NCBI RefSeq assembly: GCF_006345805.1
Contig: NC_043016.1
Location: 25,668,001-25,732,000, forward strand
Direction: 5' to 3'
Source: Octopus sinensis
Lineage: Eukaryota
Length of the DNA: 64,000 nt
Shown in pieces: positions 4,345-63,416 of the stretch. The notes beneath the pieces were generated by a model. That model was not told where the DNA came from, made no database searches, and was given only the letters and a program-made list of their open reading frames with translations. The translations under genes were made by a program, and so were the position numbers. Position 1 is the stretch's first letter, and the number at the start of each line of letters is the position of its first letter.

Positions 4345-4540
4345 TTGATAGAAATGGTAAGACAATAAAAGAATAAAAGAGACCTCAATATTATGTAAAT
4401 AGAGGATTTTATCTGTAAACGTAATATGTGACAATTATTCGGTAGCCATGATAAAACATTAGAGTTTCGGATGATGGGGTGGAAATCCACACCAGCATCT
4501 CTTCAGTTATCCAGCCATAGGAAAAAATGCTATTTTCTTG
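4345..4540 (-). mobile_element. Penelope-like pseudo-LTR fragment, family P1
   Basis: Matches 59990-60175 in opposite orientation; partial same-orientation copy at 4903-4985; contains a hammerhead motif. Confidence 0.6.
4450..4511 (-). ncRNA. type-I hammerhead ribozyme motif (canonical core)
   Basis: GAUAA CUGAAGA GAUGCUGGUGUGG-AUUU-CCACCCCAUCAUC C GAAA C(UCUAAU)G UU UUAUC: 5-bp stem I, long stem II, short stem III, GUU triplet. Confidence 0.65.
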
Positions 4541-4544
4541 GCAA

Positions 4545-4697
4545 CAGGCTTCTTTCAGTTTCCACCTACCAAATCCACTCACAAGACTTTGGTCGGCCTG
4601 AGGCTATAGTAGAAGACACTTGCCCAAGGTGCCACTCAGTGGAACTGAACCCAGAACCATGTGGTTGGTAAGCAAGCTACTTACCACACAGCCACTA
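4545..4697 (-). mobile_element. SINE family A, 5' half
   Basis: Close match to the reverse complement of the head at 53110-53265. Confidence 0.85.
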
Positions 4698-4726
4698 CTT
4701 TATATATAGTTTTTTTTATTTTATTT

Positions 4727-4824
4727 TTAATATCTAGCAGAAATAACAAGACTCGAGGTCCGAGAATTTTTTGTGTTGGCAATGAAACTCTCAAACCTTG
4801 AATCTTGTTACTTCTAAATATTAA
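4727..4824. repeat. imperfect foldback (~40-bp arms)
   Basis: Left arm AATATCTAGCAGAAATAACAAGACTCGAGGTCCGAGAATTT; reverse complement of right arm AATATTTAGAAGTAACAAGATTCAAGGTTTGAGAGTTT. Confidence 0.8.
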
Positions 4825-5189
4825 TAAAAATATACATGTACTCATATTTTGAGTTTTATTTCTCTTGTTTGCATCAACACACACACACGCGCGCGCGCGT
4901 AAATATAATATGTGACAATTATTCGGTAGTCATGATAAAACTTTGAGTTTTGGATGTCGGGGAAAAAATGCTATTTTCAGAGTGTGTGTTCTGTTTATTT
5001 TGTTAATAATATTGGATGCACTCTGTCCCTCATGGATATGTATGCATATTTCTACTATATGCATGCGTGTGTCTGCATGTACACACACATACAGTTTGGA
5101 AACAAAACAAATGAGTTGGTGACAAGAAAGGCATCCGTCCATGCAAGCAATGAAAAGTGGATACATGTATGTATGTGTATGTATATATA

Positions 5190-5245
<56 letters not shown>

Positions 5246-6284
5246 CAAATTCTAAATTTTCATGCTCTTCGGTCTAATGTGCAATTTCCCCACATACTCT
5301 AGACTTACCTTATTCCTCTTGCTACCCCACTTCCCTTCTCCCTTGGAGCTCACCAGCATCTCCACTCGTACCCTTCCTGCCTACCTTTCACTATCCACAT
5401 CTCAACCTTCACTGCTTCTACACTAACGCATGGTCAACACACTAACACAGCTTACACACACAACAATTTCTGTCCCCCCCCCCACTGTTCACTCATCTCT
5501 TAAAAAATGGCAAATATTGTACCCCTTCTGCCACCTTCTTTCTAGACCATGTGCATTATGTCTAGGTTTTTATCTGCTTATCAATATTTTTTTTCTCTGT
5601 GGATTTTATCAGCTTCCTCTTTACAGATATTTTTTCTTTATGGATTTTACATGTTTCTTACCATTCTCTGGAAAATTCTACCAAACTCTTCAAGACCTCT
5701 TGCTGTTGATGTGTAGTAAATTCTTAATTTCTTTGACTTTTCCTCTCTTCACAGAATTCATTTTTCTCTTGTTATCAAACTTTAGTTTTGAAATTCTTTG
5801 TGAAAAATGTTTTCATACTTTGTATTTTTGTTATTTCAGTTGGACACACCGTTCATCAATACGTTTATTACCTCAACGCTCACATCCAGTCTCACCTGCT
5901 TGAATTCAAACTTTCAATGACATACATGCTCCCATCAAATCTCCACCCCTTATTGCCTGTTTCAAAACATAGATACACTTTTATAATTGCATCAGTGCAT
6001 CTACACATTTGTTTCACCTTTCTGCTTTCTTAATTCCTCACCCCATAGATTATTTCTCTTTCCCTGTATGCTAATCTCTTTCATTCTCTAATGAATGGCT
6101 AATGTTGAAAATGCTAAAACCTGCTTTCTATCCATTAATACAGAACTGTAATACCTCATTTGTCACACAGGCACATTATATATATATATAATGTGATTCA
6201 TTTACAAAATAACTTTCCTTCTACAAACATGGATTGTAAACCTCTTATGATACCATGAAATTGTTATATTATTGCCAATTTTGT

Positions 6285-6319
6285 TGGTCATGATTAGCAA
6301 AAGCAAAACCGGTCGACTA
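6285..6319 (+). ncRNA. minimal hammerhead-like motif with A3-U8 core, probably inactivated (G12A)
   Basis: UGGUC AUGAUUA GC-AAAA-GC AAAA CCGG UC GACUA; palindromic stem III ACCGGU, GUC triplet. Confidence 0.4.
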
Positions 6320-6464
6320 TGTAAATATTTTATCTCATAAAAATAAATTCTGTGCATTTTCCTTTTTTTATGTATATATCAGAGTGGAAGTTATGGTATA
6401 TATTTCAACACTTGATGGTATATGCTATTCAGGAATATAAATATAATTGATTTTGTAATGTTGG

Positions 6465-6675
6465 TTTCAAATTTTGGCACAAGGCTAGCAATTTCAGGGA
6501 GAGAGTATAAAGTCAATTGCATTGACACCAGTGTTCAACTACTTATTTTATTAACCCTGAAAGGATAAATGGTAAAGTTGACCTCAGCAGAATTTGAACT
6601 CAGAACTTAAAAATGGATGAAATGCCACTAAGCATTTTGCCCAGCATGCTAAAAATTCTGTCAGCTTGGTGCCTT
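6465..6675 (-). mobile_element. SINE family B copy (short GGCCTTGTGCCAAAATTTGAAACC tail type)
   Basis: Reverse complement of the B head and central domain. Confidence 0.8.
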
Positions 6676-6756
6676 ATTTGATTTTGTAATATTACAAAGC
6701 ATTACTGTTTACCATGTGCATCTCATTAGACATACGTTCACAGTAAAGCATATATT

Positions 6757-7089
6757 TATTGGCTACAGACAAATCTAGTTATATTAATTAATCTATGTGA
6801 AATATCATTACATTTTTTACTGGAACTGTTGTGATGATGTAATATATATATATACACAGTGATCATTAAATCAGGGATTTGATTCCTGAACCAGAATATA
6901 TATGTATGTTTTCCAATTTGGGAATCAAATCCATGACTTAATGTTCACTAGGTCAATACTCTAATCATTATATCATGTGTTTTTCACTGTAAATGTATCT
7001 GTTACATCATCACAAGGGTTTCAATGAATAGCATAGTGGCGTTTCATATAAATTAATAAATATAGCTAAATTTATGTCTGTAGCCAATA
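6757..7089. repeat. nested imperfect foldback
   Basis: Outer arms 6757-6862 and 6985-7089; inner arms 6858-6896 and 6911-6950. Confidence 0.85.
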
Positions 7090-7696
7090 CTGCCATCTTT
7101 GATATCCCAGTTTTGATAAACATCTGTAGCTAACTGTTACCTCACAGTTTGATAAATATGATATAGTATTTCATAGAAGGTAAGGTGTAGTTTGAGAAAA
7201 TAATGCTGTTCCACTATCTGATGAATAATGTTGCGCTGCTTGGAAACAAATGGGGAGGAGGAGGAGGTGGTAGGAAAGGCATCTGGCTGTAGAAAACCTA
7301 CTTCAGTTAATTTTGTCTAACCCATGCAAGCATGTAAATGTAGATGTTAAAACAATGATGACGTACTGTTTACTGATGAAACACTAGTACACGTTTATTT
7401 CTAGATTTAATTCTTGAAACTATCAGTGTATTGTCTTTGAGAGTAAGGCACATACAGCTAAAATGAACATCAGCCAAGAGCTGGTGAAGCCCTCTTCTTT
7501 CAGGCATTTCATTCTAAATGTTCCACTAAGTCAAAAGATAGGAGGGCTGAGTATATAGGCACCTAAAACAAATTAGTGAATGCATGGTACAATACTACTG
7601 AGTCGTACCTGCTTGTGAGTGATAATTACAGTTTATATATACATATGAATATATTATATATATTTGTGTGTGTGTTTATGTGCATGTGTGTGCATG

Positions 7697-7728
<32 letters not shown>

Positions 7729-7739
7729 CACACATATAT

Positions 7740-8770
7740 GTTGGTGCCACATAAAAAACACTCAGTCCATTCTATGGGGTGGTTGGTGCTAGGAAGGTCA
7801 TCCAGCTGTAAAACTATGCCAAAATAGGCATAATAGCCTAGGGTAGTCTTCTACCTGGCTGGCTCATGTCAAACCATCCAACCCATGACAGCTTGGAAGA
7901 CTGATGTTGAATGATGATGATGATGACATATGCATCATTACCAGTTAATGTCTGTTTTTCTGGAATTGGTTGGGCAGATGCTGCACCAGGCTTCATTGCT
8001 TTGACATGGTTTCTATTGCTGGAAGCCCTTCCTGTCACCAACCACTTTACAGAGCGTATTGGATGGTTTTCATGCGGCACCAGCACCAGCCAGTTGCCAA
8101 GTACCTTGCAAAAGGAACACCCCCCCTCCCGTCAGCTGGGAAGTAGAAGCAGTATTGAGGGTGGGAGTGGTTTTGTACCAGTTGACGAGAGATTAAAGGT
8201 ATAGAGGGACACAGATAGGTGTTTTCTGTACAATGGAAACACGGATGCTCTGGTTGGAAAAGAAAGGAAGAGAGTAAGATAAAAAGAGTGGTTAAGTCAG
8301 AGTAAAATAGAGAGAGCAATAATGAGAGAGATGTGGTGAAGATGTGTTGGGGGCACATGCCCTTTGGGGTGAGGGGCATTGAAGGTGGGGGACAGTGAGT
8401 GAGAATAAGTGAGGTGATGCAGAGGTTTGGACTAAGTGAATGGGTAGGATAGTGGTGACGGTGGCAAATATGATAGGGTGAAATATAGAAGCTGGGTGGA
8501 GGCTGCATTAGATATGTGAGGGTACTGAGGGTGATAACAGATAAGCAAGGTATTAACCACACAGGGAGAGAAGGCACAGAAAGGAGGTGATTGCTGAAGA
8601 CAGTAGGGGTGAGTTTGGGGAGTAGAGATAATGGGGCGGGGGTGGGGTGAAGGAAGGAAGCTAACTGAGAAAGTAGGTGGGAGGGATGTGGTGTGTGCCT
8701 ATTCTGCTCTCAGGTGATAGAGAAGTGATAGGTATTGGGATGAACTGAGGAGGTAAATGGTTGGTGGTAT
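7740..8770. mobile_element. tail-to-tail pair of RTE 3' ends (+ 7740-7928; - 7930-8770 with purine-rich UTR)
   Basis: GGAAGG(G/T)CATCCAGC motif and (ATG)n on +; CCCTTCCTGTCACCAACCACTTT reverse motif on -; the GA-rich block resembles 38000-38370 and 49880-50045. Confidence 0.65.
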
Positions 8771-8907
8771 GTGTGTGGGTGCTCACACACACATACACAC
8801 ACACACACACATATATATTCAACATGTTTTCATACTGCTCTTCCAGTTCACTAAAATTCGCAAGGCATTGGCTGAGTAAATGGTATGGTAGAAAAGAAAT
8901 ATTTGCT

Positions 8908-9148
8908 CAAGGTGGCGAGCTGGCAGAAATATTAGCATGCTGGGTGAAATGCCTAACGATATTTTGTCTGTGTTACTCTCTGAGTTCAAATGCCGCTAAG
9001 GTCAACTTTGCCTTTCATCCCTTTGCGGTCGATAAGTTAAGTACCAGTTACGCACTGGAGTCGATGTAATCAACTTGATCCCTTTGTCTGTCCTTGTTTG
9101 TCCCCCTCTATGTTTAGCCCCTTGGGCACAATAAAAAAATAAGAAATA
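8908..9148 (+). mobile_element. SINE family B, full length with TSD
   Basis: Flanking direct repeat AAGAAATATTTGCTCAAG at 8894-8911 and 9141-9158, partly overlapping the element ends. Confidence 0.9.
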
Positions 9149-10354
9149 TTTGCTCAAGTTATATCCTTTGACATATTTGCAAAGCAAGCTTATACACACA
9201 CACACAAACATGTACGAACATCTATCTATCTATCTGTCTGGCCATTGTTGTTTGTATCTCTTCATGACTACATAGGCACCTAAAAACAATTCGCAAAAGA
9301 TTGGTACATGCTACCAATTCATACTCACTTGCAGGAGACAAATTGTATGCTATTTCACACACACACACACACATGTGTGTGTGTGTGTGTGTGCATGTAT
9401 ACTTTAGACTATGAGTGTTTTGGCCACTGGTTGTCTTCAGGTGCACTCACATGAGCAACATTAGTCATTTCCAGTCTTCTATGGAAATATTCTGGCCATC
9501 ATGGTGTTCATGGTTTCAAAGAACTACAGAATGTATTATTAACCCTGTTTGGAAACAAATATAAGTTGGTGACAAAAAGAGCCGGGTATAGAAAATTTGT
9601 AGAAAATCTGCCACAATAAAACTTCATTTGTTGTAGGATCAGTCAAGCAATTGTGGTAAATTGCAGTAGGTTAGTCTCTAGTATAAACATGGTTTGCATA
9701 ACAAATATAGATGGTTTGATAATTGATCAATAAGATTTATTAATCAATGCATCACATACAGTTCATCCCATATCAAGATTTGAACATTTCCAATAACAGG
9801 TATTATACAACTGCATATATAATGTAAAAAAAAATATAAGCAAGATATACCTATCTATCGATTATATTGTATTTATGATATTCTGTTGTTTTATATGGAT
9901 ATTGTAATGCTATTTCACTGAAAATATGACTATAGATATGTATATGTAGCTTATACCATGACTGACAAATCCTCCTATTTTCTTCATTCAGCTTTCTTCT
10001 ACTTCACTTCAGTTGAATTTCATTGGATGTTTTGATCATGTGACAAATAGTTAATGAATATATGCCTACTACTTAACTCTGAGACACTAACCACACATTG
10101 ATTTTTCTCCTCACTCTTTCACTCCCCACTCTTCCTTTCTTTGAAATTTCATTCATTCTTTCCTTATCCTTTTTTTTTTCTTCTTTCTCTGCCACAAAAT
10201 ACTACATTGTCTTACTATTATTTCACTTTTTATCCTTGCTTTTTTCTTCTTCTATCTCTGTTGTTGTTGTTGTTGTTGTTATTGTCAATACTAGTAGAAG
10301 TAGTAGTGTTTTATTTTTTTCTCTAATTTTTCCATTATCAACTTTATTCTCCAG

Positions 10355-10400
10355 TCTTTGCAATGCTTTAGTGTTTGTTAAAAATTTTAACAGAATGGAA
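10355..10400 (+). CDS. candidate 46-nt cassette exon (LCNALVFVKNFNRME, phase 2 to 0)
   Basis: ctaat branch-like motif near 10323, ttattctccag acceptor, weak GAA|gtagga donor, open frame. Confidence 0.2.
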
Positions 10401-10496
10401 GTAGGAGGAGTTGCTTTTCATTTGGTTTTTCTTTTTGTTTTAGATGTTCTTTTATTGTTAGTTCTCCTTTTATCTCTCTCTATCTCTCTCTCTCTA

Positions 10497-10529
<33 letters not shown>

Positions 10530-10911
10530 AAGTGTACAACTGTTAGCTATTCTTATTCAAGAAATAGTCTTAAGATATTTTCTTTTAGTTAAGTCTAACC
10601 CATCCCTCTCTCTGTCTCTCTTACTCCCTCCCATTCTCTCTCTCTCTCTCTCTCTCTCTCTTACTTATGCCCTCTCTTTTTGTCATTGACTTTATGCTAC
10701 TCTCCATTTAACTACCTCCCATTACAATGACTATGATTGTATAGTTTAAAAGTTTGCTTCTCAACCACGTGGTTCTCGGTTCAGTCCCACTGTGTGGCAC
10801 CTTCGGTCTTCCATGAAAACATGTCTGACCATGGAGGAGATATTAAACCTTACTTGGAAATGGGTGACGAAGGGTGTTCCCTCTGACCCATGCTAGCTTA
10901 AACAATGATGA

Positions 10912-11256
10912 TGTGGCTGTGTGGTTAGAAGCTTGCTTCTCACCTACATGGTTCTGAGTTCAGTCTCACTGCATGGCACCTTGGGTGTCTTCTACAATAG
11001 ACTCAGGCCGACCAAAGCCTTGTGAGTGGATTTGGTAGACAGAAACTGAACGAAGCCCGTCATATATATATATATATATTATATATATATGCGTGTCTTT
11101 GTGTCTGTTTGTCCCCCCCCCATCATTACATGACAGCCAATGTTGGTGTGTTTCATGTATCAGGCTTACAAAGAATAAGTTAGGGGTTGATTTCTTCGAC
11201 TAAAAGGCAGTGCTCCAGCGTGGCCCCGGTCAAATGATTGAAACAAGTAAAAGAAT
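10912..11256 (+). mobile_element. SINE family A with internal deletion
   Basis: Head, central (TA)n and CAAATGATTGAAACAAGTAAAAGA tail. Confidence 0.85.
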
Positions 11257-11607
11257 AAATAAATATATATATCACCATCCTCATCATGTTCATTTAAGTT
11301 CTGTTTTCCATGCTGGCAAGAGTTGGATGACCTGAGAGCAATTGTCAAGACCAGGGGCCACTCCAGGTTTCATAGTCTGTTTTGATATGGTTTCTACAGC
11401 TGGGTGCCCTTCCTAATGCCAACAACTTTTCAGAGTGTACTAGGTACTTTTTATGTGCATCATCATCAGTGCTTTTCACGCAGCACCAAATATATATATA
11501 TATATAATCATTGTTTTAACATCCTCTTTCCTATGCTTGCATGAGTTGGAGGAATGTCCTTCTTCTTATTTAACTCTCACCTCTTTCCAAGCAAAGTAAT
11601 ATTTCCT

Positions 11608-11990
11608 CAGTGGCTGTGTGGTAAGTAGATTGCTTATGGACCACATGGCTCCGGGTTCAGTCGCACTGCGTAGCACCTTGTGCAAGTGTCTTCTACTATA
11701 GTCTCGGGCCGACCAAAGCCTTGTGAATGGATTTGGTAGACGGAAACTGAAAGAAGCCCGTCATATATATGTATATATATATATGTTTGTGTGTCTGTGT
11801 TTGTCCCCCCCAACATCACTTGACAACCAATGCTGGTGTGTTTATGTCTCCATAACTTAGCAGTTCAGCAAAAAGAGATTTATAGAATAAGTACTTGGCT
11901 TACAAAGAATAAGTCCTGGGGTCGATTTGCCTGACTAAAGGCGGTGCTCCAGCATGGCCACAGTCAAATGACTGAAACAAGTAAAAGAGT
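11608..11990 (+). mobile_element. SINE family A, near full length
   Basis: A-box-like TGGCTGTGTGG, B-box-like GGTTCAGTC, central microsatellite, conserved tail. Confidence 0.9.
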
Positions 11991-12832
11991 ATACATGTTT
12001 GTGTATGTATTCAATCTGTGCCACCCCTCCTACCAACACCATTATCACCTTTCACCACCATCACCATAACAACCACAAGCAATACTACCGCCACTGTATC
12101 CATAACCACTGTCATTCACAACATTTCTTCCTCAATCAAAGTGTGATGGCTAAATGAATAAAATATGAAACTATCTTGTCTCAGACATCAACATATCATT
12201 GTTTAACATCCTCCTTCAGTGCTGGCATGGGCGGAAACCTGTGCCATGCTTCTGAGTGTGTTTTCATGTGGTTTCCTTCCTAACACCAACCACTCTGTAG
12301 AGTGGGCTGAGTGCCTTATGTGGCAGGTGAGATCAGTTTTGGTGTTTTTACAGCTGAATGCCCTTCCAAATGCCAACCTCTTTACAGTGTGAACTGAGCT
12401 CTAACTGTGATAACCTACTATCCTTTCCTGGTAGAGGTTACCCTCTCACATATTGCTGAACCCACTTGTTAATTTACTGTTTCTGAAACCTTCTCTGCTT
12501 TTTCATCTGCAAAGTTTTAGTTTCAATGAATTACATTGTTTGCTATGAGACATTCTTGTTATTTTCCATGTCATGTAAAATGGTATTTGGGCTGGGAGTT
12601 CAATTATTCTATCTATCTGGATGTAAAAAATCTCATAAATTGTTACCTTTTAGAGCCTTGTTTAAAGGATTGTGTCTGCATTTTTTACCTGACCAGATCT
12701 TATGTCATTCCTTATTTTCTTTCTGAGTTAATACTTCCAGACTGTTACAAAACGATCAATATTTTCCATTTGACTGATTCCACATGTGGCACATGTTGAG
12801 CAGATAACAACAAACTCTCCATTTTTTACTAT

Positions 12833-13064
12833 AATACCTTAGCATTCAGATTACTCTTTCAAATGTATTGCTTCGAATGTACTACTCACATCATTTTGAG
12901 TTAATCCTGCATTATCTTGTAGCTCCAAGATTTTGATGATGTGATTGTTTATTTTTAGAATGACATTGTAGGGTAGGAGCGAGAGTCTAGATCTGGCCAG
13001 TTTCAAAATAAAACATGTAGAATATTTGGACCAGATATGGCTATTTTAAATATTAAAGAGTTAA
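12833..13064 (+). mobile_element. TTAA-type MITE family M2
   Basis: CCTTAGCATTCAGATTACTC...TTTAAATATTAAAGAGTTAA; reverse copy at 58822-59048; partial copies near 19700, 37425, 45550 and 56290. Confidence 0.7.
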
Positions 13065-13359
13065 ACTTTCTCTGGAAGCTATTCCTACAATGAGTCCTGA
13101 TTTTTTTTCCACATTCTTTGTATCTCTGCAGAACTGTCCATAAAACTTCCCTTCTCCTAGCATTTCCTTTTCTTTTACAAATTACCCTGTTTTCATATGT
13201 TTTCTTCTCCTCAAATTCAACGCCACTAAGTCCTACTTCTATTGCAGTAAGCATGTTTAAGTAGTTTTTTTCTTCACTCTTTCCAAGGTAGTGGTTTATT
13301 GACCTTTGTTTCCATTCACACAATCAGAAATGCTAATAAGTCTTCTCTCCCCAACTTCC

Positions 13360-13525
13360 ATTTCGTGTATAAATGGCTGACATTTGCCTTCATATGAAAC
13401 ACTCCATGCATAGAGTTTTACTTGTTTTTCCAATGTATCATCTTCCACTTAATTCACTATTCCAGTACTATGAAGCACAACTAATAAAAGCCTGTATGTT
13501 CATTGTATACATTAAATTCCTTGAA
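13360..13525 (-). pseudogene. possible decayed GIY-YIG endonuclease fragment (PLE)
   Basis: Minus strand reads NLMY...YIGKTSKTL...SAIY with stops, resembling the PLE pattern YIGxTxRxL...SAIxxH. Confidence 0.3.
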
Positions 13526-14169
13526 TTTTGTAGATTTCTGTACAAGCTTTTAATTTTAGCAAATATATTGTTTTTAGTTTTTCTTTCTTTTCTCTGTACA
13601 TGAATTCACCAAGTTCCATCTACTGTTCTTGATTTGTGTGTTCAAGTATTACAAAACTCAATCGAAACCTTTAACACAATCAAACAAAGCTATGAAGATC
13701 TACAGATTTATGTTTTGAAATAGAAATAAGAATGTACATAAAATGTAAAATTTCCATTGGTTCTGCTAATTATCATCATCACCACCTTGACCATCATATT
13801 CCATGTTTGTATTGGTCAGATAAAATTTGTTGGGGAAAGTTTTCTGTCACCAGATGTTCTTCCTGTCACCAACTCTCTTCATTTCAAATATCAACAGCTC
13901 ATTGGGGTACCAAGAATTTGGAATACAGAATGCAACCTGGACAGTGAAGCTGAAGATTCAGGGCAAGGCATTGTCTCTAGAGATAAATGTGTGTATGTGC
14001 ATGCATGCATCTGTGTTTTTGTTTATTCTACATTGGTCTAATTTTCTAATTTAACCTTTCATCTATTCAGGGCCAATAAAATGGAGTACTGGGCTGGTGT
14101 TATTGTTAGTATGTTGGACAAAATGACTTACAGCAGTATCTGTTTTAGCTCTGTATCTTCTGATTTCTT

Positions 14170-15097: not shown

Positions 15098-15144
15098 ATT
15101 ATATTGTGTGTATGTGTTTGTTTGTATGTATGTCTGTATGTATA

Positions 15145-15499: not shown

Positions 15500-15530
15500 T
15501 AGATCATATATGTGTGTGTGTGTGTGTATG

Positions 15531-20139: not shown

Positions 20140-20382
20140 AAACAGACCTCTGACTTCTGCCTGAAGTCAGAACGCCATGATAGACCGTTAGCTCCTACAC
20201 ACATTTTTTTCTCTCCTTGTTTCTCTCTTTGTTTCTTTTCTGTGTATCTTTCTGTCGAAGAGCGTAGGCTCGAAATGTAAAAGACTTGTTCTATTTCTAT
20301 TCCTGAGTGCCATACTAATACATTTGTTTGTTTGTACTCCACCTGCCTTTGTCTTTTGTTTATTTTCGTAAACCTTCCCGTT
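20140..20382 (+). mobile_element. Penelope-like fragment carrying a hammerhead-like motif
   Basis: Unrelated to the host SINE, pyrimidine-rich, contains the motif at 20247-20284, lies in the SINE (CA)n/(TA)n. Confidence 0.55.
20247..20284 (+). ncRNA. minimal hammerhead-like motif (A6U variant)
   Basis: UCUUU CUGUCGA A GAGC-GUAG-GCUC GAAA UG UA AAAGA. Confidence 0.55.
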
Positions 20383-24492: not shown

Positions 24493-24700
24493 TACAAATT
24501 ATGGAGTTGTACTTGCATAGCAAGTGACCTGATCTGAGATTGTGTGCTAGAACGAAAACAGTTGCAGCGTGGAAGGTGTTTATAAGTCATTTAAGAAACA
24601 CACAAAAACCGTTAGATTCACTTCAACATTTAAATTTAATTTGTCAAAATATTTTCGTCACTTTGAGACCGCGACCTGTTCACTGACAAAAATTCCGTAG
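24493..24700 (-). mobile_element. Penelope-like fragment
   Basis: Distinct CpG-containing island that carries the hammerhead motif at 24640-24690. Confidence 0.45.
24640..24690 (-). ncRNA. minimal hammerhead motif with swapped G3-C8 core
   Basis: UUUGUCA GUGAACA G GUCGC-GGUCUCAAA-GUGAC GAAA AUAU UU UGACAAA: 7-bp stem I, 5-bp stem II, palindromic stem III. Confidence 0.6.
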
Positions 24701-30604: not shown

Positions 30605-31942
30605 CTCTTTACTCTTTTACTTGTTCCAGTCATTTGACTGCGGCCATGCTGGAGCACCACCTTTAGTCGAGCAAATTGACCCCAGTACTTATTCTTTGTA
30701 AGACTAGTACTTATTCTATCGTTCCCTTTTGCCGAACCACTAAGTTACGGGGGACGTAAACACACCATCATCGGTTGTCAAGTGATGTTTGGCAGGGAGA
30801 CAAACACAGACATCATCATCATCGTTTAACGTCCGCTTTCCATGCTAGCATGGGTTGGACGGTTCAACTGGGGTCTGGGAAGCCCGAAGGCTGCACCAGG
30901 CCAGTCAGATCTGGCAGTGTTTCTACAGATGGATGCCCTTCCTAACGCCAACCACTCCATGAGTGTAGAGGGTGCTTTTTATGTGCCACCGATACAGGTG
31001 CCAGACGAGGCTGGCGAACGGCCACGCTCGAATGGTGCTTTTTACGTGCCACCAGCACGGAGGCCAGTCGATGTGGTGCTGGCTACGGCCACATTCAGAT
31101 GGTGCTCTTATGTGGCACTGGTACCACAACTACAAATTCCATTGCTGTTGATCGATTTCGATTGATTTGATTTTCACTTGCCTCAACAGGTCTTCACAAG
31201 TAGAGTTATGTGTCCCAAGAAGGAAGGTATGCACAGGTGGACTGACTACTTCCCAGGTAGGGGCCACAGGTTATGGCCTCACTTGTCCTGCCGGGTCTTC
31301 TCGCGCACAGCATACTTCCAAAGGTCTCGGTCTCTGGTTGTTTCCTCGGTGAGACCTAAAGAGCGAAGGTCATGCTTCACCACCTCGTCCCAGGTTTTCC
31401 TGGGTCTACCTCTTCCACAGGTTCCCTCAACCGCTAGGGTGTGGCACTTTTCAACACAACTATCTTCATCCATTCTTACCACATGTCCATACCAACGTAG
31501 ACGTCTCTCTTGCACACCACATCTGATGCTTCTTAGGTCCAACTTTTCTTTCAAGGCACTTACACTCTGTCGGCTATGAACACTGACATTACACACCCAT
31601 TGGAGCATACTGGCTTCATTTCTTGCAAGCTTACGCATATCCTCAGCAGTCACGGCCCATGTTTCACTGCCATGTAGCATGGCTGTTCGTACACACGCGT
31701 AATACAGTCTGCCTTTTACTCTGAGTGAGAGGCCTTTTGTCACCAGCAGAGGTAAGAGCTCTCTGTACTTTGCCCAACGACGAGCTTCTTTCAGTTTCCG
31801 TCTACCAAATCCACTCACTAGGCTTTGGTCGGCCCAAGGCTATAGTAGAAGACACTTGCCCAAAGTGCCATGCAGTGGGACTGAACCTAGAACCATGTGG
31901 TTGGTAAGCAAGCTACTTACCACACATCCACTCTTACACCTA
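30605..31942 (-). mobile_element. SINE family A split by an RTE insertion
   Basis: Tail half 30605-30811, head half 31777-31942. Confidence 0.9.
30812..31776 (-). mobile_element. 5'-truncated young RTE LINE (ORF C-terminus 31279-31776 plus 3' UTR)
   Basis: Open frame with RTE-type motifs MLHGSETW, RRLRWYGHVVRM and GRGRPRKTW; (ATG)n tail. Confidence 0.93.
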
Positions 31943-41529: not shown

Positions 41530-41793
41530 TTATTATTATTATTGTTATTATTAGTAGTATTATAATAAAGGTGGCAAGCTGGCAGAATTGTTAGTGCGCT
41601 GGGCAAAACACTTAGCAGTATTTCATCTGTCATTACAATTTGAGTTCAAATTCCACTGAAGTCGACTTTGCCTAGGGTTGATAAATTAAGTACCAGTTAC
41701 ACACTGAGGTTGATGTGATCAACTAGTCCCCTACCCAAAAATTTCAGGCCTTGTGCCTTTAGTAGAAATCATCATCATCATCATCATCATCAT

Positions 41794-52184: not shown

Positions 52185-52255
52185 AATAATAATAATAATA
52201 ATAATAGTAATGTTGTTGGTGTTATTTTACTTGCTTTCTTCTCTCACCTGTAAAG

Positions 52256-53873: not shown

Positions 53874-54107
53874 TTTTCTTTATTACCCACAAGGGGCTAA
53901 GCACAGAGGGGACAAAACAAGGACAGACATAGGTATTAAGTCGATTACATCGACCCCAGTGGCGTAACTGGTACTTAATTTATCGACCCCGAAAGGATGA
54001 AAGGCAAAGTCGACCTCGGCGGAATTTGAACTCACAACGTAACGCAGACGAAATACCACTAAGCATTTCGCCCGGTGTGCTAACGTTTCTGCCAGCTCGC
54101 CACCTTA
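53874..54107 (-). mobile_element. SINE family B, young copy
   Basis: Near-identical to 19297-19517. Confidence 0.92.
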
Positions 54108-54427
54108 TGTATGCATAAATACAGTGTACATTTAAACACAAGAGATGACCATAATAGGACATCTGACTCACTAGAAAGAGCAGTTAAACTCCAGACCACT
54201 AATAGTTGTAGTTCTGAAAGGGAATGAGAAATAAAAACGTTTACCCTATCTTTCCTGGACTATGCATAGTTTCAGCAATCTTTTGTAAATAAAATAAAAT
54301 GATTTTCTTTTACAATTGGCATTGCCATTCTATGAATAATATATAGTCTATTGACTAATTTTTCTTCTCACTAGAGCACTGGTAGCAAAGAATTTTTCTA
54401 AAAAATTCGGTACCCTTAGATTTATTA

Positions 54428-54480
<53 letters not shown>

Positions 54481-55089
54481 TTCAGCTTATATTCTTCTGA
54501 GGTAATGATGCCTTCTGATGATTGATTAAATCTTTCACTAACTGTTTCTGTTGAAATACACTTCCTTTATTTCAATTAATTTGAAAATAATGAAGAATTG
54601 GGTAAAAATAACTTGAGTTGGTGTTTAGAGCATAAATTAACATGAAATTATGATGGAAGGTTTTGATTTGAATTACTTTGACTGTTTAGTTGCCATGTTT
54701 CTGTTGAAATACATAACTTTTGTTTCAACTAATTTCTGACTTTTAAACAGGAAGTTTGTATCATACAGCCGTATGCAGTTTTATGTGCATTGGTATTAAA
54801 AAGGTTAACCCCTTTAAAACACATGGTGTTTTGGTATGTGTAGCCAAAAAGACCAAAACGTTTTTACTATTGAGATTGAAATTGATGGGTGCATGTAGAA
54901 AGCAAAGGATAAAGTGCCTAAAACTACTTTATTAATATGCAAAACTATATATATATATATATATATTATGAAAGCTTACAAACAGTACAATACATCTATC
55001 ACAATAAGAAAATCTAAAACAGCACAATTCATGTTAGTAAATAAAATAATAAGCATAAATGTTTATGTAAAAAAACAAACAAAAAAATA

Positions 55090-55960
55090 TCTACTGAAAG
55101 ACAGTCTCTGATTGATATTACACATCAAGATCAACCATTCACAACATTTGTTTCATTGGGCCAATGGATCAGCCTCAAAATCCTTTCAGCTTGTATCACT
55201 TGGGCTGATCAATCAGCCTAGGTATCCTTTTAAGGAGGTTAAGGAAGTGATGAGCTCAGTTTTTTTTTTTTTTTCTATGCATGTGTTCACACATAAATCA
55301 ATCAGAACAGCTGCAGTTTACACTTTCAACAACAGATGGAATTCTTCAACTGAATATAATAACATAATATCATCTAAAACTATCAGTTATTACTTTTAAG
55401 TCAGGGGTTCTCAGCTGTTTTTTTTTTACCTATGGATCCCTCTGATTATTATTATTCTATTCTAGTGAACCTCTGTAGTCATTTGATGTTTAAAACTAGT
55501 TTTATAGAAACTTCCTTCAAAATTCCTATTTTGTTTTCACACTTTAACTTGTGTTGGTTGAACTATGTAAAACATTAGAGAAAGAAACCTAGCTGTTTCT
55601 TGCAATACATAGCAATGCATATATCTAAGACAAAATTTTTTCAGGGGCCCTTAAAATACTACTGTGGATTCCCAATTTACTATTTCATTCTGTGGACCCC
55701 TCAGAAATCTTATATGGACCCTGGTTGAGAACCGCTCCTTTAGGTGAATGTTTTGGACCATGGTAATTCTCATAGCATAAACTAATGCAGCCACAAAAAG
55801 TTAAGGTACCATAGTATCTCCTTGTAGTACTCCTGCAAGAATTTAAAAAATTGTCCATCTCACCTAAGAGTACTTAGGCCCTTGTTTCCTTGAGGAGAAT
55901 ATTGATGACATTTATGATTTTTTTCAAGGACACCATAAACTTCTAGAATTTGTATTAATC
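55090..55960 (-). pseudogene. decayed RTE-like RT core, split by a hAT MITE
   Basis: ILAGVLQGDTMVP*LFVAALVYAMR on one side of the MITE and DDIMLL on the other. Confidence 0.7.
55402..55737. mobile_element. hAT (Charlie/Buster-like) MITE
   Basis: TIRs CAGGGGTTCTCAGC / GTTGAGAACCGCTC; 8-bp flanks TTTTAAGT / CTTTAGGT with central TA; internal ATGGACCC repeats. Confidence 0.8.
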
Positions 55961-55989
55961 TTTTAGCATTGAGATTATTAAGGGTAAAG

Positions 55990-56287
55990 CCCATCCCACT
56001 GGAAAGTTACCCTCTGAGGCATAAGTCCAGACAGTTGTTTGTGGAAGACCAACTTACCTATATGCATACTAGCCTACTCTCTTTCCATACAACCAATGTT
56101 ATTCAAAGGAAAGGCAAAGGTCAATACAGCTTGACACCAGTGACATTGCAACTCATTTCTACACTTGAGTGACCTGAAGCAATGTAAAATAAATATCTTG
56201 CTGAAGAACACAACACATAGCCTAGTCCAGGAATCAAACTCACTACCTCATGACTGTGAGCCTGGTGCTCTAACCACTGCACCTTCC
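55990..56287 (-). mobile_element. CORE-type SINE C1, diverged
   Basis: Reverse complement of 56783-57090. Confidence 0.8.
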
Positions 56288-56782
56288 TGTCAAATATAAT
56301 GCTTATTTATTCACACTGTTTTGAGTTGATCATACATTATCTTGTAGCTTTGAGATTTTGATGATGCATTAGGCATGACTAGGTCAGTTTAAACACAAAA
56401 TAGGCAGAACATTTGGCCCTGATGTGGCCTATTCAAATGCTAAAGGGTTGAATTTTTTGTGATGAATCATGTTGAAGTCTGTTTTTAAAAAGTTTTTTTT
56501 TTTCTCAAGGTCTCTTGTTCTCTTAACAAGCTTCATAAAGAAAGTATGTATATTGTAGTGATTGATTTACCTGGAATTTATGTTGGTTTTCTTTTTTATT
56601 TTCATCTGAGTATTGGTTCTAAGAGAGGTCTGATTCTTTGCTGAAGCATCTTGTAAATTTTTGCAGTTAGCAATTGTATTGGGGAAATAACTTGTGTACA
56701 AATTGATTTTTTTTTAACCCTTTTGACACTAGCCTGCTTAAAACAGCTCTTGTTTCTCATACAAAATCTTCTTGTTTTATAA

Positions 56783-57118
56783 GTGAAGGCACATGGCTCA
56801 GTGGTTAGAGCGTCGAGCTTACAATTGTGAGGTTGTGAGCTCGAATCCCGGATCGGGCTGCGTGTTGTGTTCTTGAGCAAAACACTTTATTTCATGTTGC
56901 TCCAATTCACTCAGCTGTAGAAATGAGTTGCAACATCACAGGTGCCAAGCTGTATCGGCCTTTGCCTTTCCCTTGGATAACATCAGTGGCTTGGAGAGGG
57001 GAGGCTGGTATGCATGGGCGACTGCTGGTCTTCCATAAACAACCTTGCCCAGACATGTGCCTTGGAGGGTAACTTTCTAGGTGCAATCTCATGGTCAGTC
57101 ATGACCAAAGGGGGTCTC
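56783..57118 (+). mobile_element. CORE-type SINE C1, full length (OR-like)
   Basis: A-box TGGCTCAGTGG, B-box-like GCTCGAATCCC, CORE-like GTGTTCTTGAGCAAAACACTT...CTCAGCTGTAGAAATGAG. Confidence 0.9.
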
Positions 57119-58047
57119 AGCAGTATATAGTGATCTAAATTAAAATCTTCCATCGAAATTTCATGATAATTTATGTTCTAAACATCAACTTCATAATGAC
57201 AATGTTATTTTACTAAAATCTTCATTATTTTCAAAATTAATTGAAACAGTAAGAGTGCAGTTTAACAGAAAAGGGATAATCCCAATTTATTTTTTGTGTT
57301 TGTTGCTGGAGACCACTTGTAAAGCAAAAACTCACAAAGCAGAGCAATGATTTCCCATGGTACTCTGTTGCTGTGTAGACACTTCAGAACCAGTGTTGCC
57401 ACACACACACACACACACAAAATGGTTGTTTAACCTTTTTATATTTATTATAAAATAAAACTTGTGAAACTGAGGTCTCCTAAAGCAGGTCCTCATAAAG
57501 TGAGGTATTATTGTATTTAATTTTGTTGAAAGAGTGTTAGTAAAAGAAAGGGATCCATAGTTATGGTAAGAATCTCAGAATGGTAATTTGGTTATTAATA
57601 GAAATGTGAAGGGGATGAGAGAAAATGATTAAAAATAGGAAGAAAAGAAAATACTTCAAGAGTTCAAGGAGTGGCAGACTGGAAGAATTATTTGGTTGAA
57701 GTATTTCTTACTTGAAGGTCAATTAGGGTCATTTAGTAGTGTATGGTGGTCAGTGAAAGTGGAATTTTTTTTTTTCTTTTTGTACATTCAAAAAAAGAGT
57801 GAGTATGTGAGTTGACAGAAATTTCTGTGATGGGGTTTATGTCAAGAGTAAAGAAGGTGGAGTGCATAGGATCAGTGTTGATGGTGGTGTATAGTCATGG
57901 CTTCATACACATGAACTATGTTAAGATTTCAGCCATGCAAACACACACTGGCACATTAACTTTATGGACACTGATGGTTTGGAATTTCTTATAATCCACA
58001 CTAATTTAAGAGCAGGAACTACAAATTCTCACATCTGCCAGACTTGC

Positions 58048-58445
58048 TCTTTTACTTGTTTCAGTCATCTGACTGTGGCCATACTGCAGCACCACCTTTA
58101 GTCGAGCAAATCAACCCCACAACTTATTCTTTGTAAGCCTAGTACTTATTCTATTGGTGTCTTTTGCCGAACCGCTAAGTCACAGGGACCTAAACACACC
58201 AGCATCGGTTGTCAAGAGATGTTGCGGGGACAAACACAGACACACAAACATACACACACACACACATATATATATATACATATATACGACGTGCTTCTTT
58301 CAGTTTCCGTCTACCAAATCCACTCACAAGGCTTTGGTCGGCCTGAGGCTATAGTAGAAGACACTTGCCCAAGGTGCCACGCAGTGGGACTGAACCCGGA
58401 ACCATGTGGTTCGTAAGCAAACTATTTACCACACAGCCACTCCTA
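58048..58445 (-). mobile_element. SINE family A, full length
   Basis: Reverse complement of 53105-53512. Confidence 0.92.
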
Positions 58446-58821
58446 ACAGAGTTAATACTTTGCACATTACAGTATATCAATTTATTGGATGTAGCTCTGC
58501 ATCATTGACCAGTAGAAAGGATGTCCTCTTGGGGTTAAAAAATCGCAGTAGAGTCCATTTGAATGGACAGCAATGTTGAAGTGGCCATGAATATTACTTG
58601 TCAGTATATTAATACTATAGATTAAACTTCTATCATTTATACTAATGGACAAGTACAGCATCTTTAATATTCTGAGTTCAAATTTTGCTAAAGGCAACAT
58701 TGCCTTTCATCCCTTTCGGGGTTGATAAAATATAAATCTGTTGAGCCTTGGAGTTGATGTAATTGGCTTTCTCTTCGCTGAAATTGCTGGTCTTGTGCCG
58801 AAATTTGAAGCCAATATTTGT

Positions 58822-59048
58822 TTAATTCTTTAACATTCAAACCAGCTGTATTCAGCCCAAATATTCTATGAGTTTTATGTTGAAACCAACCAGATCAAGC
58901 CTCTCCCACCTACCCTACAATGTTATTTTAAAAGTAAACAACCATATTATTGAAATCCCAAAGTTATGAGATACACATGATTAATTCAAAGCAGTATGAA
59001 TGAGTAAACATTGCATTTGGCTGAGCAATCTGAATGTTAAAGGGTTAA
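58822..59048 (-). mobile_element. MITE M2, complete
   Basis: TTAA|TTCTTTAACATT ... AATGTTAAAGGG|TTAA. Confidence 0.75.
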
Positions 59049-59181
59049 TTTAGTGTGTATCTACCCCTAGTTCAGAAAAAATCAGGATTAGGATTAGGTT
59101 TTGAAAGCAAAGGTTGAAGAAAATTGATCCTGTACCTGTACTCACAGTTAAGAAATTATGTGTTTGTATGGAGACACGGAG

Positions 59182-59440
59182 TGGAGGTGCATGGCTTAGT
59201 GGTTAGGGTGTCAGCATCATGAGCGTAAGATGGTGGTTTCGATTCCTGGACCGGGCGACGCGCTGTGTTCTTGAGCAAAACACTTTATTTCATGTTGCTC
59301 CAGTCCACTCAGCTGGCAAAAATGAGTAACGCTGCGATGGACTGACGTCCCGTCCAGCTGGGGAACACATACGCCATAGAAACCGGGAAACTGGACCCAT
59401 GAGCCTGGCTAGGTTTTAAAAGGACGCATTTATTTATTAT
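59182..59440 (+). mobile_element. CORE-type SINE C2, full length
   Basis: A/B boxes, CORE block, CTGCGATGGACTGACGTCCCGTCCAG tail; TSD TATGGAGA(C/T)ACGGAG at 59167-59181 and 59441-59455. Confidence 0.92.
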
Positions 59441-59519
59441 TATGGAGATACGGAGGCAAACAGACTAACACATAATGGTACATATGCATAGATGTAAATA
59501 TACATAATTGCTTGTGTCA

Positions 59520-59830
59520 TAATCATCACCATTTAGCTTCTACTTTCCATACTGGCATGGGTCAAACAGTTTCAGTTTGATTTGGCATGGCTGAATGCCC
59601 TTCCTAACATCAACTACTCCAAGAGTGTAATCGGTGCTTTTAACTTACCACTGGCATCAGCCAGTACTATGATTTCACTTGGCTTAATGAGTCTCCTCAA
59701 GCACAGCATATCACCAAAGGTCTCAATCACTTGTCATCACTTCCATGAGACTAACGTTTGAAGATCACACTTCACCACTTCATCCAATATCTTCCTGGAT
59801 CTACCACTTCTACACATTCCCTCCACAGAG
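59520..59830 (-). mobile_element. decayed RTE 3' end
   Basis: Minus strand VEGMCRSGRSRKILDEVVKCDL plus tail. Confidence 0.8.
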
Positions 59831-60175
59831 TTCAGCACTACAAGCGCGCATGTGTAGGTATAGACATGTGCGCTTACGCGAATACTATGAACTTTTTTAC
59901 TCCCTCCCCTCACCTAGCGGTCATTCAAATAGCTCTTTTATCTTAATAACGGTCAATCACACAGTAATTTCCCTTTGTTTAATGGTCATTTTCATAGCAT
60001 TTTTTCCAATTGCCAGATAACTGAAGAGATGGCGGCATGGGTTTCCACCTCGGCATCCAAAACTTATGGCTACCAAATAATTGTCATATATTATATTTAC
60101 AGATAAATTCCTCTATTTACATAATATCGAGGTCTCTTTCATTCTTTTCTTGTCTTACCATTTCTATCAATATAT
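59831..60175 (+). mobile_element. Penelope-like family P1 copy with a damaged hammerhead (60016-60067)
   Basis: GATAA CTGAAGA GATG...CATC C AAAA; downstream sequence matches 4345-4450 in reverse. Confidence 0.6.
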
Positions 60176-60801
60176 TTAAATATATATATTTTTAGGAAGT
60201 TTATTGTTACACCTGGTTGGAGAGTGACCATTGGTTTTGCACCTATAAAGCTGTATAAGTGACTTGTAGGCTAAACACTTTATAGGTGTGTACCAATGGT
60301 CACTCTCTGACTGATCACAGCAATAACCTTCCTAAAACTATATATTACTGCTCTAAAGTTTTAGAATGTGCTTTTTTTTTTTTTTTTTTGGATATACAAA
60401 CTACTGATGATTATAAACACACACACACACACTCACTTATTTATAAACACACACACACACACATACACATGCACATGTATGAGTGCTTCCAATCAGTCTA
60501 TTAGTTATACTTGTGCACAATTATAACTCTATGTTGAATACATAGTAATATTATATAAAACGATTTGTTCATAATCTTATAGCATGAACCACACTTGTTT
60601 GGGCAAAATAAAGGAAGGTTCCACTAACCATCATTATTAGAGTAGAAGATATATTTCAGAGACTGAATTGTGTCAATTTATGAATGGTTTTGGCAGAGCT
60701 GGAGGGTTAGGTAAGTAGTAAGTGGAAGGTGTTGAAGTGAAGGAGCTAAGTAGGAAGCAAGCTAGTGAGAGAGAAGGGGAGAAAAAGATAGACAGAGAGG
60801 G

Positions 60802-60833
<32 letters not shown>

Positions 60834-61323
60834 CAAAATAGATAAAGGGAGAAAGAAGCTTATAAGAGAGTAAGATGTATGTCTGGAGTGAAGTTGAGAA
60901 AGAGTGGGAGGTGTGGTAGGAGTGTCATTGATAGCAAGGCTGGAGGACAGGGAGGAAAGACTATGATAAGGGAGAGAGAGGTGCTGGTGGTGGTGAGGAA
61001 TAAAGGGAGGTGATTTGGTAAAGTTGATGGATATGTGAAAGTGTATGTGTTGTGTTGTGTAGTGGGTAGAAGGTGGGGGTGTAAGCTTGTGAGAGAAAAG
61101 ATGTTTGGGGGTACAAGAGACCAGTATTTTGATACAAATGTAAACACCAATGATAATAATAGTAACAGGTGAAAAACAGAGGTTAGGATGATGACCTTTA
61201 GAAATGGTGTGTGTGTAAACACACATATAGTAAGTAGTATAGGTCCTAATAAAGTTGAAAATTGGTGTATTTCCAATGCAGTTATTAACACTATATATAT
61301 AAATTATATACACACACACACAT

Positions 61324-61363
<40 letters not shown>

Positions 61364-61770
61364 AATGTCAAGCAGTGAGACAGAACTGGAGACCTCAGTC
61401 ACATTCTTATCCCCCATTTCATTTCTGTTTCACTAACTGAGACTGACCAATGCCTTGTGGGTGAAATAATAAGTTGACAAAACTAAAAGATGATTCGTCC
61501 TTTTAAGCGTTTTAGTTCACATTTCATGTCCATGAAAACTTTTATATATATATATATAATTCCAAGAAAGTTAGGGGTTGTGGGTCCAACCTACTAAGGA
61601 ATAATATCTATCCAATATACTGTTGGTATAATTTAATATTTAGGATAAATGACATGTATGTATGTTATTATAATTATCATTTTAATAAATAAATAAGTTA
61701 ACATTTTACTGTCCTAATGTTGATGAATCAACTATTGTGCTTCTCCATTTTCTTATTTGCAATATATATA

Positions 61771-62195
61771 CTCTTTTACTTGTTTCAGTCATTTGACTGC
61801 GGCCATGCTGGAGCACCACCTTTCATCGTGCAACTCGACCCCGGGACTTATTCTTTTGTAAGCCCAGCACTTATTCTATCGGTCTCTTTTGCCGAACCGC
61901 TAAGTAACGGGGACATAAACACACCAGCATCGGTTGTCTAGCAATGCTAGGGTGACAAACACAGAAACACAAACACACACACGCATATATATATATATAT
62001 ATATATTATATACATATATACGACGGGCTTCTTTCAGTTTCCGTCTACCAAATCCACTCACAAGGCTTTGGTCGGCCCAAGGCTATAGTAGAAGACACTT
62101 GCCCAAGGTGCCACGCAGTGGGACTGAACCCGGAACCATGTGGTTGGTAAACAAGCTACTTACCACACACCACACAGCCACTCCTGCGCCTATAT
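61771..62195 (-). mobile_element. SINE family A, full length, young
   Basis: CpGs largely intact. Confidence 0.92.
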
Positions 62196-62622
62196 ATAAA
62201 CTACACTTATTTTTCCTGAAGAGATTTAACAATATACAGATTATTGCATCTTTTTAAGTTATAATTATTCATTATTCTCAAATATTGCTATATTGAAACA
62301 TACATATGTATGTGGCATATCTTTTTGCGGGATGGGTAATATTATTTGGGTTATTTTATTAGTTGAGGCGGTTCCTTTTATACTCTTATAGGTGTATTTT
62401 TTCGTCTTTTCCTTTGCATTACATTTCCAATTGTAATACAAACAAAACAAATCAAGCATCTTTTGAATTATTCTTCTCCATTTTCTTTTATTGACTTTAA
62501 TTTTATGATTTCTTTATACACATATATATTGATGATCTTCCTATCAATATATTTGGTAAAACAGTGGCATAGGGATTGTTTTTAACAATCCCTTACATGG
62601 ATATTGCTTTATCAAATTCTGA

Positions 62623-63045
62623 TTGTATGTATATATATATATATATTATATATATATATATTGTATGTATATATATTGTATGTATATATATTGTATGTAT
62701 ATATATTGTATGTATATATATGTATGTGTATATATTGTATGTGTATATATGTATATATATATTGTATGTATATATATTGTATGTGTATATATGTATATAT
62801 ATATATATTGTATGTATATATATATATATGTATATATATATATTGTATGTGTATATATGTATATATATATGTATTGTATGTGTATATATGTATATATATA
62901 TGTATTGTATGTGTATATATGTATATATATATATATATTGTATGTGTATATATGTATATATATATATGTATTGTATGTGTATATATGTATATATATATGT
63001 ATTGTATGTGTATATATGTATATATATATATTGTATGTATATATG
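62623..63045. repeat. compound (TA)/(TG) minisatellite
   Basis: Recurrent unit TATTGTATG(TG)TATATA(TGTATATATA..) of about 15-33 bp. Confidence 0.95.
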
Positions 63046-63046
63046 T

Positions 63047-63200
63047 CAGTGGCTGTGTGGTAAGTAGCTTGCTTACTAAGCACTTGGTTCCAGGTTCAGT
63101 CCCACTGCGTGGCACCTTGGGCAAGTATCTTCTACTATAGCCTCGGGCCGAGCAAAACCTTGTGAGTGGATTTGGTAGGCAGAAACTGAAAGAAGCCCAT
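63047..63200 (+). mobile_element. SINE A 5' half
   Basis: Head through GAAAGAAGCCC, then the foldback begins. Confidence 0.9.
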
Positions 63201-63282
63201 CAGCATGTGTATATATAAAAATTAACAGAATGAGATAAAAATCCAAGGCCCTGAAAGATTTTAGAACATTTATAAACAGAAG

Positions 63283-63330
63283 GTCTTACAACTGTTTCCA
63301 GGATATTTTATATATTCCTTCATCGGAGAC
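63283..63330 (-). ncRNA. minimal hammerhead motif, left-arm copy
   Basis: GUCU CCGAUGA A GGAAUAU-AUAAA-AUAUCCU G GAAA CAGUUG UA AGAC. Confidence 0.55.
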
Positions 63331-63368
63331 AGTGTGAGAAAATGGTTATGCAATAGTTTTCTCACACT

Positions 63369-63416
63369 GTCTCCGATGAAGGGATATATAAAATATCCTA
63401 GAAACAGCTGTAAGAC
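63369..63416 (+). ncRNA. minimal hammerhead motif (U4C), right-arm copy
   Basis: GUCU CCGAUGA A GGGAUAU-AUAAA-AUAUCCU A GAAA CAGCUG UA AGAC; palindromic stem III ACAGCUGU, GUA triplet. Confidence 0.6.

Follow-up and report, generated by a model that had tools for sequence, protein, structure and literature searches.

Hammerhead motifs of Penelope-like elements in Octopus sinensis occur with all four Watson-Crick pairs at core positions 3 and 8

A 64,000-nucleotide stretch of the Octopus sinensis genome (NC_043016.1, positions 25,668,001 to 25,732,000; hereafter the window) contains seven sites that resemble minimal hammerhead ribozymes. They had been noticed in an earlier reading of the window from its letters alone (the sequence-only reading). 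We found that they are copies of five dispersed repeat families (F1 to F5) and that comparable motifs lie at the 3' ends of Penelope-like elements (PLEs). Core positions 3 and 8 of these minimal type I hammerheads are kept Watson-Crick complementary, and all four pairs (C-G, U-A, A-U and G-C) are present in this genome. The probable reason is that the source elements need a folded ribozyme, which is predicted to cut as a dimer.

Excess of the motif over shuffled DNA and pairing of positions 3 and 8

Our first descriptor, which allowed no single-base insertion beside stem II, recovered none of the seven sites. A revised descriptor, written after the families were known, allowed one insertion, required a palindromic stem III and left positions 3 and 8 free. 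Applied to 1 Mb of the genome (100 evenly spaced 10-kb stretches), it gave 23 matches, while six local dinucleotide shuffles of the same sequence gave 1, 0, 2, 0, 0 and 0 (mean 0.5). This corresponds to an about 46-fold excess in the real sequence, so that the sequence-only reading, which had proposed such a comparison, passed it. Without pairing being demanded, positions 3 and 8 were Watson-Crick in 19 of the 23 matches (13 C-G, 4 U-A and 2 G-C); the four others resembled decayed copies, two of them visibly.

Sequence clusters gave the same picture. In this genome 25 of 27 clusters were Watson-Crick at 3:8, a number reached in none of 20000 permutations (mean 12.3), in a set that includes loci chosen with the window families and one probable chance G-C match and that omits the A-U families with a 2-bp stem II. 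Clusters from PLE loci of other organisms were Watson-Crick in 19 cases out of 19 (permutation mean 10.3, reached in 0 of 20000). Because the 91 PLE loci from other organisms had been found by protein, this sample was independent of the motif; at a looser setting it gave 41 matches (31 C-G, 9 U-A and 1 A-U), 40 of them on the sense strand, versus 1.7 per shuffle. None of 11 multi-copy clusters was a family with a mismatch majority at 3:8. Apparent G3/A8 families were rejected, their copies being decayed U3-A8. The covariation announced by the sequence-only reading, a C-G/G-C/A-U series at 3:8, thus exists between families, but that reading had overlooked U3-A8, the commonest non-canonical pair between families. 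As far as sequences can tell, these data suggest that the fold, including pair 3:8, is under selection in the source elements, with cutting as its predicted activity.

Each site of the window belongs to a dispersed family with 143 to 2,266 first-look candidates genome-wide, F1 having 2,266. In every family the majority sequence has all the elements of a minimal type I hammerhead: the three-stem junction, core positions 3 to 9, G12-A13-A14-A15 and U16-H17; G5, A9, G12-A15 and U16-H17 are kept in all families. As the sequence-only reading had anticipated, the family consensi preserve the stems and the 3:8 pairing. The F1 majority has the core CUGAAGA, a long stem II and a stem III ACUCgGAGU with one central unpaired base. 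Its copy at 4450..4511 (minus strand) retains the canonical C3-G8 core CUGAAGA with a decayed stem III palindrome, a second copy at 4909..4962 (minus) is a 3' fragment that starts at the end of stem II and has lost G12, and the copy at 60016..60075 (plus) is dead, A replacing G12 and an 11-nt deletion having taken stem III and the cleavage site. F2 (AUGAUUA, A3-U8, 2-bp stem II, palindromic stem III ACCGGU) is represented at 6285..6319 (plus), where G12 has changed to A. F3 (CUGUNGA, i.e. C3-G8 with U6 and a variable position 7, an extra base after A9, stem III ACGU) is found at 20247..20284 (plus), with AUGU where most relatives have ACGU. F4 (GUGAACA, G3-C8, an extra G after A9, a 7-bp stem I and the palindromic stem III AAUAUU) has an essentially intact copy at 24640..24690 (minus). 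F5 (CCGAUGA, C3-G8 with C4, a 1x1 mismatch beside the core and the palindromic stem III ACAGCUGU) is present at 63369..63416 (plus), and its inverted partner at 63283..63330 (minus) has one change in stem III.

The coordinates and cores of the seven sites were as the sequence-only reading had written them, and its five distinct elements correspond to the five families. Its statement that all seven fit the full pattern is true of each family majority but not of every copy: 6285 and 60016 lack G12, 60016 also lacks stem III and the cleavage site, and only two of the seven (24683, minus, and 63373, plus) pass a strict descriptor within the window. The stem III palindrome is damaged in the copies at 4450, 20247 and 63283, and several defects of window copies are at CpG sites still intact in relatives. 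Counted per copy, the pair was G-C in 115 of 132 F4, A-U in 31 of 32 F2, and C-G in 53 of 54 F3, 56 of 62 F5 and 77 of 88 F1 copies, shares that are biased upward because copies were mostly chosen by likeness to those of the window. Most genomic copies are solo and decayed, and therefore not themselves working ribozymes. With decayed ones included, we measured about 92 family copies per Mb, in agreement with the dense and diverse set, about 1 per 10 kb, of the sequence-only reading.

Only F1 has the consensus core CUGANGA, the others deviating by A3-U8 (F2), U6 (F3), G3-C8 (F4) or C4 (F5). Position 7, the free position of hammerheads, varies in F1, F3 and the A-U and G-C families. The prediction that CUGANGA searches miss the set is consequently right for F2 to F5 and wrong for the canonical F1. 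Descriptors of this kind overlook thousands of motifs in this genome, F4 by itself contributing 5,721 exact copies, so that animal ribozyme censuses undercount. Rfam scans gave zero hammerhead matches in the window at E up to 10 and in loci L157, L169 and L361 at E up to 1. C4 (CCGA cores) was also seen in families other than F5 (L066, L140, L284 and L371), where CpG decay converts it to canonical CUGA in some copies. Across the species of a PLE group (L414, L416, L440, L164, L165 and L371), motifs commonly have a 1x1 mismatch, frequently U/U, where the core meets stem II.

Association with PLEs and exchange of A-U for G-C

A GIY-YIG search of this genome yielded long reverse transcriptase (RT)-endonuclease frames. 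Their linker, CxxxxCxxC, is similar to the one described for Neptune/Nematis in PMC8557442, and Pfam recognized RVT_1 and GIY-YIG in locus L157. The named relatives of these proteins are from bivalves or bivalve-associated assemblies. Hammerhead motifs lie downstream of the RT-endonuclease open reading frames (ORFs) on the same strand, with U3-A8 in several families and C3-G8 in others, and the distance from the GIY-YIG end is 220-800 nt for the A-U, G-C, U-A and F3 families. In L080 the F3 motif and a GIY-YIG end about 800 nt upstream of it belong to one contiguous stretch, and in L100 and L102 the F2 motif is likewise contiguous with a GIY-YIG end that lies upstream of it on the same strand. 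Of 20 loci of the endonuclease group nearest F2, 14 have an A3-U8 motif, which follows the ORF at a distance of about 220-290 nt; stem I changes preserve pairing in this group and position 7 varies. Genome-wide, a pattern with a purine at position 3 and ACCGGU gave 2,747 matches versus 1,501 for the reversed pattern, and about 68 of the first 100 matches listed were A3-U8 (by eye).

The expected tie of the families to a PLE RT/GIY-YIG ORF therefore held for F2 and F3. F4 proved to be a retrozyme-like unit without coding capacity, and no linked ORF was seen for F1 or F5 in the loci examined. F5 homology extends about 800 nt upstream, ORF-less, up to a TA repeat. F1 and F5 share the PLE insertion footprint, the shape seen for PLE insertions being an inverted 5'-truncated partner, an optional 3' tail and TA-repeat targets. 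An apparent F1 tandem in L147 was a local duplication carrying flanking DNA. Intact frames of about 780 aa are found in a young PLE family (e.g. C6:12733272, C3:65736423, L157 and L158), which carries a U3-A8 hammerhead and would be well suited to assays. In another organism, an unrelated PLE (L481:1969, metagenome contig Ga0314667_10019796) has a single-copy A3-U8 hammerhead behind the GIY-YIG end. A search for PLE relatives in viral contigs found none. Animal-type PLE contigs (L491-L501) occurred inside several bacterial metagenome-assembled genomes, probably as host contamination.

A further PLE group surfaced in the list of purine-3 matches. With position 8 free and any purine at position 3, 57 of its 65 matches were G3-C8 (by eye), the remaining eight having G (3), U (3) or A (2) at position 8, and an endonuclease match was present upstream in 7 of 16 fetched loci. 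Twelve homologous motifs from L509-L532 were aligned over 104 columns (alignment A2); nine are G-C and three A-U. The rows share flanks, and stems II and III are identical in some of them. As read from this alignment, one PLE lineage shows a direct compensatory swap between A-U and G-C with otherwise homologous flanks, the pairing being preserved while position 7 and loop II drift. A conserved 5-bp hairpin (columns 24-42) is found just upstream of stem I in this A-U/G-C group, and its loop could contact the tiny loop II.

The first large endonuclease tree was distorted by a microsatellite-contaminated row; 12 of the 43 rows were dropped and a 31-row tree was used. The rows of the A2 motifs fell on one branch (95/94). 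All purine-3 rows were within a 96/97 branch, together with one short U-A row and one row to which no 3:8 state was assigned, and the nearest rows outside this branch are U3-A8. From short endonuclease trees we infer the order C-G to U-A to A-U to G-C.

F4 unit, stem III and RNA

F4 gave 5,721 exact 20-mer matches genome-wide and none with a reversed-pattern control; a C3-G8 version of the F4 flank, searched genome-wide, had 0 matches (the F4 positive control worked). A generic G3-C8 pattern gave 8,587 matches versus 946 for its control, with subfamilies that differ in loop II. F4 copies begin 10-25 nt before stem I. They have two alternative end points, which differ by about 65 nt, and an inverted partner is often present; together these features make up a PLE footprint. 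The whole insertion in the window (24498..24698, minus) is accordingly a 5'-truncated piece of an ORF-less unit of about 390 nt plus the optional 3' tail of about 65 nt. The full head-to-tail unit is 387 nt long in L361, and the same spacer is found in L342 and L366; such units are rare. Its longest open frame is 59 aa, and there is one type I hammerhead per unit. L054 and L341-L370 (C30 and unplaced contigs) have arrays in which TA repeats separate 170-nt F4 units, and G3-C8 and G3/G8 units were seen mixed within one array. The circular fold of one decayed unit was about as stable as its shuffles (-78.9 vs -78.7 +/- 5.7). A 9-bp inverted repeat around about 85 nt lies just upstream of the usual 5' truncation point (L361:1800-1900) and may stall reverse transcription. 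Loose read ends hinted at an alternative upstream sequence, which had 0 genome matches. The common core and first stem pairs suggest that F4 may derive from the G-C PLE group, although the F4 monomer had no significant likeness to PLE 3' ends beyond the core. A search of sequencing runs gave no match recorded as RNA. In three raw RNA-seq runs (about 6% of each sampled; the species is possibly a relative), position 8 of F4 was C in 335 of 351, 237 of 250 and 239 of 249 reads.

Stem III cannot form in a monomer: as a hairpin it was computed at +2.1 to +6.0 kcal/mol, and in F3 it is too short. As a self-duplex it was computed at -0.2 to -9.7 kcal/mol (7 examples, F5 not among them), so that it can pair with a second copy, like the PLE motifs already published (PMC4209133). 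In the mechanism that we propose, the window sites would be 3' end fragments of PLEs and of PLE-type non-coding repeats. In a transcript with tandem pseudo-long terminal repeats, or in a multimer, two motifs would pair via the palindromic stem III and cut the RNA after N17, slowly and perhaps aided by the PLE protein, like the hammerhead of an anole PLE (PMC11167929). Inverted partners cannot supply the second half on one RNA, because they are on opposite strands. Selection would act on a few source copies, while solo insertions decay, and the pairing seen between families would mirror selection on source elements that need the folded ribozyme.

Several observations weigh against this interpretation. 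The F4 stem III duplex is at the weak end of the range (-0.2 kcal/mol). In the RNA-seq runs, F4 reads were in both directions with no pile-up of ends, although this is an insensitive test of cleavage, and the spacer of the full F4 unit had a depth of 0-3; the study of the anole PLE Poseidon likewise saw no RNA ends at the site (PMC11167929). F3 (U6) and F5 (C4) have fixed changes at two positions for which reduced activity upon substitution has been reported (A6C and U4C; PMC3088659). No ORF link was found for F1, F4 and F5 in 60 loci each, the few PLE matches being unrelated neighbours. The alignment-wide covariation score of A2 is weak, being reached by 12 of 500 shuffles, and reflects a single event, and the tree does not unite the purine-3 rows in a single clade (2 changes). 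Finally, the mismatched core GUGAAGA (G3/G8) recurs in 6 of 118 F4 copies.

Three other explanations were considered. Chance matches in AT-rich repeat DNA might be suspected since the motif is short and the first descriptor found none of the sites, and one window match, a single one at 41715 at the end of a short interspersed element (SINE) beside an ATC repeat, does look like chance and was treated as such. This explanation is refuted by the excess over shuffles, the F4 counts against the reversed pattern and the fixed position and strand behind PLE ORFs. Very improbably, the purine-3 families would be dead or drifting ribozymes, whose source lost activity before a complementary second change was fixed by chance. 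This idea draws on the fact that going from U-A to A-U or from C-G to G-C requires two transversions via a mismatch, on the G3/G8 minority in F4 and the eight matches without C8 in the G-C PLE group, and on uncleaved RNA serving as template in vitro (PMC11167929). It is contradicted by the lack of a mismatch majority in all 11 multi-copy clusters, by the reduction of the apparent G3/A8 cases to decayed U3-A8 copies, by a swap that keeps pairing while neighbouring positions drift, and by the A3-U8 pair of the unrelated PLE at L481.

The fold and pair 3:8 would also be kept if they served to bind or position the PLE RT-endonuclease, cleavage being slow or incidental. We consider such a role unlikely, less so than drift. 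C4 and U6 are fixed in high-copy families, the F4 stem III is very weak and stem II has only 1-2 bp in the A-U and G-C families; moreover, catalytic mutants leave in vitro insertion unaffected and the ribozyme needs protein to cut (PMC11167929), and activity was low even with dimers (PMC4209133). However, pair 3:8 is established as part of the fold that is catalytically active, and a mere protein site is not expected to take four pairs yet keep all catalytic bases. The need for binding was also mapped to the first 172 nt of the ORF, without a tie to the core in the account given in PMC11167929. Selection on a folded ribozyme in the source elements thus remains our preferred explanation. A bolder version, to which we give even chances, is that hammerheads with all four 3:8 pairs are active in this one animal genome, that purine-3 cores were born in a single PLE lineage (U-A to A-U by two transversions, then A-U to G-C by two transitions), with A3-U8 arising again in another animal, that this is natural proof of in vivo selection on PLE cleavage, and that F4 is a G3-C8 retrozyme.

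Comparison with known hammerheads

A paper by Lunse, Weinberg and Breaker (RNA Biol 14:1499) reportedly deals, by its title, with small PLE-associated hammerheads that cleave as dimers. No natural family with A3-U8 or G3-C8 was found in the literature searched, in the 56-row alignment of PMC4209133 or in the supplement of PMC8557442; the alignments of Lunse 2017 may include purine-3 cores, so that such families may already be in print. Minimal dimeric PLE hammerheads, the insertion between 9 and 10.1, inverted pairs, natural U3-A8, U4C and the laboratory C3G/G8C rescue (PMC11167929, PMC8495972) are already known. What seems to be new is that a single genome contains every one of the four core pairs and that a swap between two of them can be traced.

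The motifs resemble those described in the pseudo-long terminal repeats of metazoan PLEs (Cervera and de la Pena 2014, PMC4209133) in being of type I, with a short palindromic stem III and an extra base between 9 and 10.1. There too, copies are mostly solo and truncated, with inverted pairs 100-700 bp apart and thousands of copies in many families, and a U3-A8 variant exists (about 1,300 in Schistosoma mansoni). In contrast, none of the 56 rows of Fig. S3 of that paper has a purine at position 3, their cores being C3-G8, U3-A8 and one U3/G8, whereas A3-U8 and G3-C8 are family majorities here, and C4 and U6 are fixed in other families. The natural core variants of Perreault et al. 2011 (PMC3088659) include U3-A8 covariation, U4C and A6C, with a 2-bp stem II being common; they are called rare there, unlike here, and G3-C8, A3-U8 and A6U are not named in its text passages. 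Cleavage by the hammerhead of the anole Poseidon PLE is lost with either C3G or G8C and returns in part when both changes are combined (Frangieh et al. 2024, PMC11167929). The tail from two RT start sites in that element matches the two 3' ends of F4, but G3-C8 was a laboratory mutant there, while it is the natural state of high-copy families here. Animal non-LTR retrozymes (PMC7229834; bioRxiv 10.64898/2026.07.22.740005) resemble F4, whose unit of about 390 nt lacks ORFs, is repeated head to tail, contains a single type I hammerhead and occurs in tandem arrays. F4 differs from them by its G3-C8 PLE-minimal core, by the rarity of full units, its arrays being mostly of truncated 170-nt ones, and in that no abundant or circular RNA was seen.

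In phage contigs, the canonical core was found in about 2,100 stretches, and 125 of the 134 sampled were complete. Only 1 of 39 G3-C8 matches was complete and none of 3 A3-U8 matches closed all stems. Purine-3 cores are thus very rare in phage contigs, and PLEs therefore seem unusually tolerant. The G3-C8 core with a normal stem III in L539 (IMGVR_UViG_3300032397_001285) is part of a complete-looking type I hammerhead.

PLE hammerheads are poor cutters in vitro, are not needed for in vitro insertion (PMC11167929) and have been suggested merely to parasitize PLEs (PMC8557442). That a tertiary pair of their active fold has undergone compensatory changes within one PLE lineage speaks for selection of the fold in source elements, and the A-U and G-C motifs are matched natural pairs for a direct assay.

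A PLE protein remnant was looked for in the window and none was found. The surrounding DNA, part of a 2.7-Gb assembly, is repeat-rich, with microsatellites, SINEs and one remnant of a long interspersed element (LINE), and its repeats look like those of a cephalopod. A 186-aa frame at 31279-31839 (minus) had no Pfam match; we take it to resemble the C-terminal part of an RTE-type LINE ORF.

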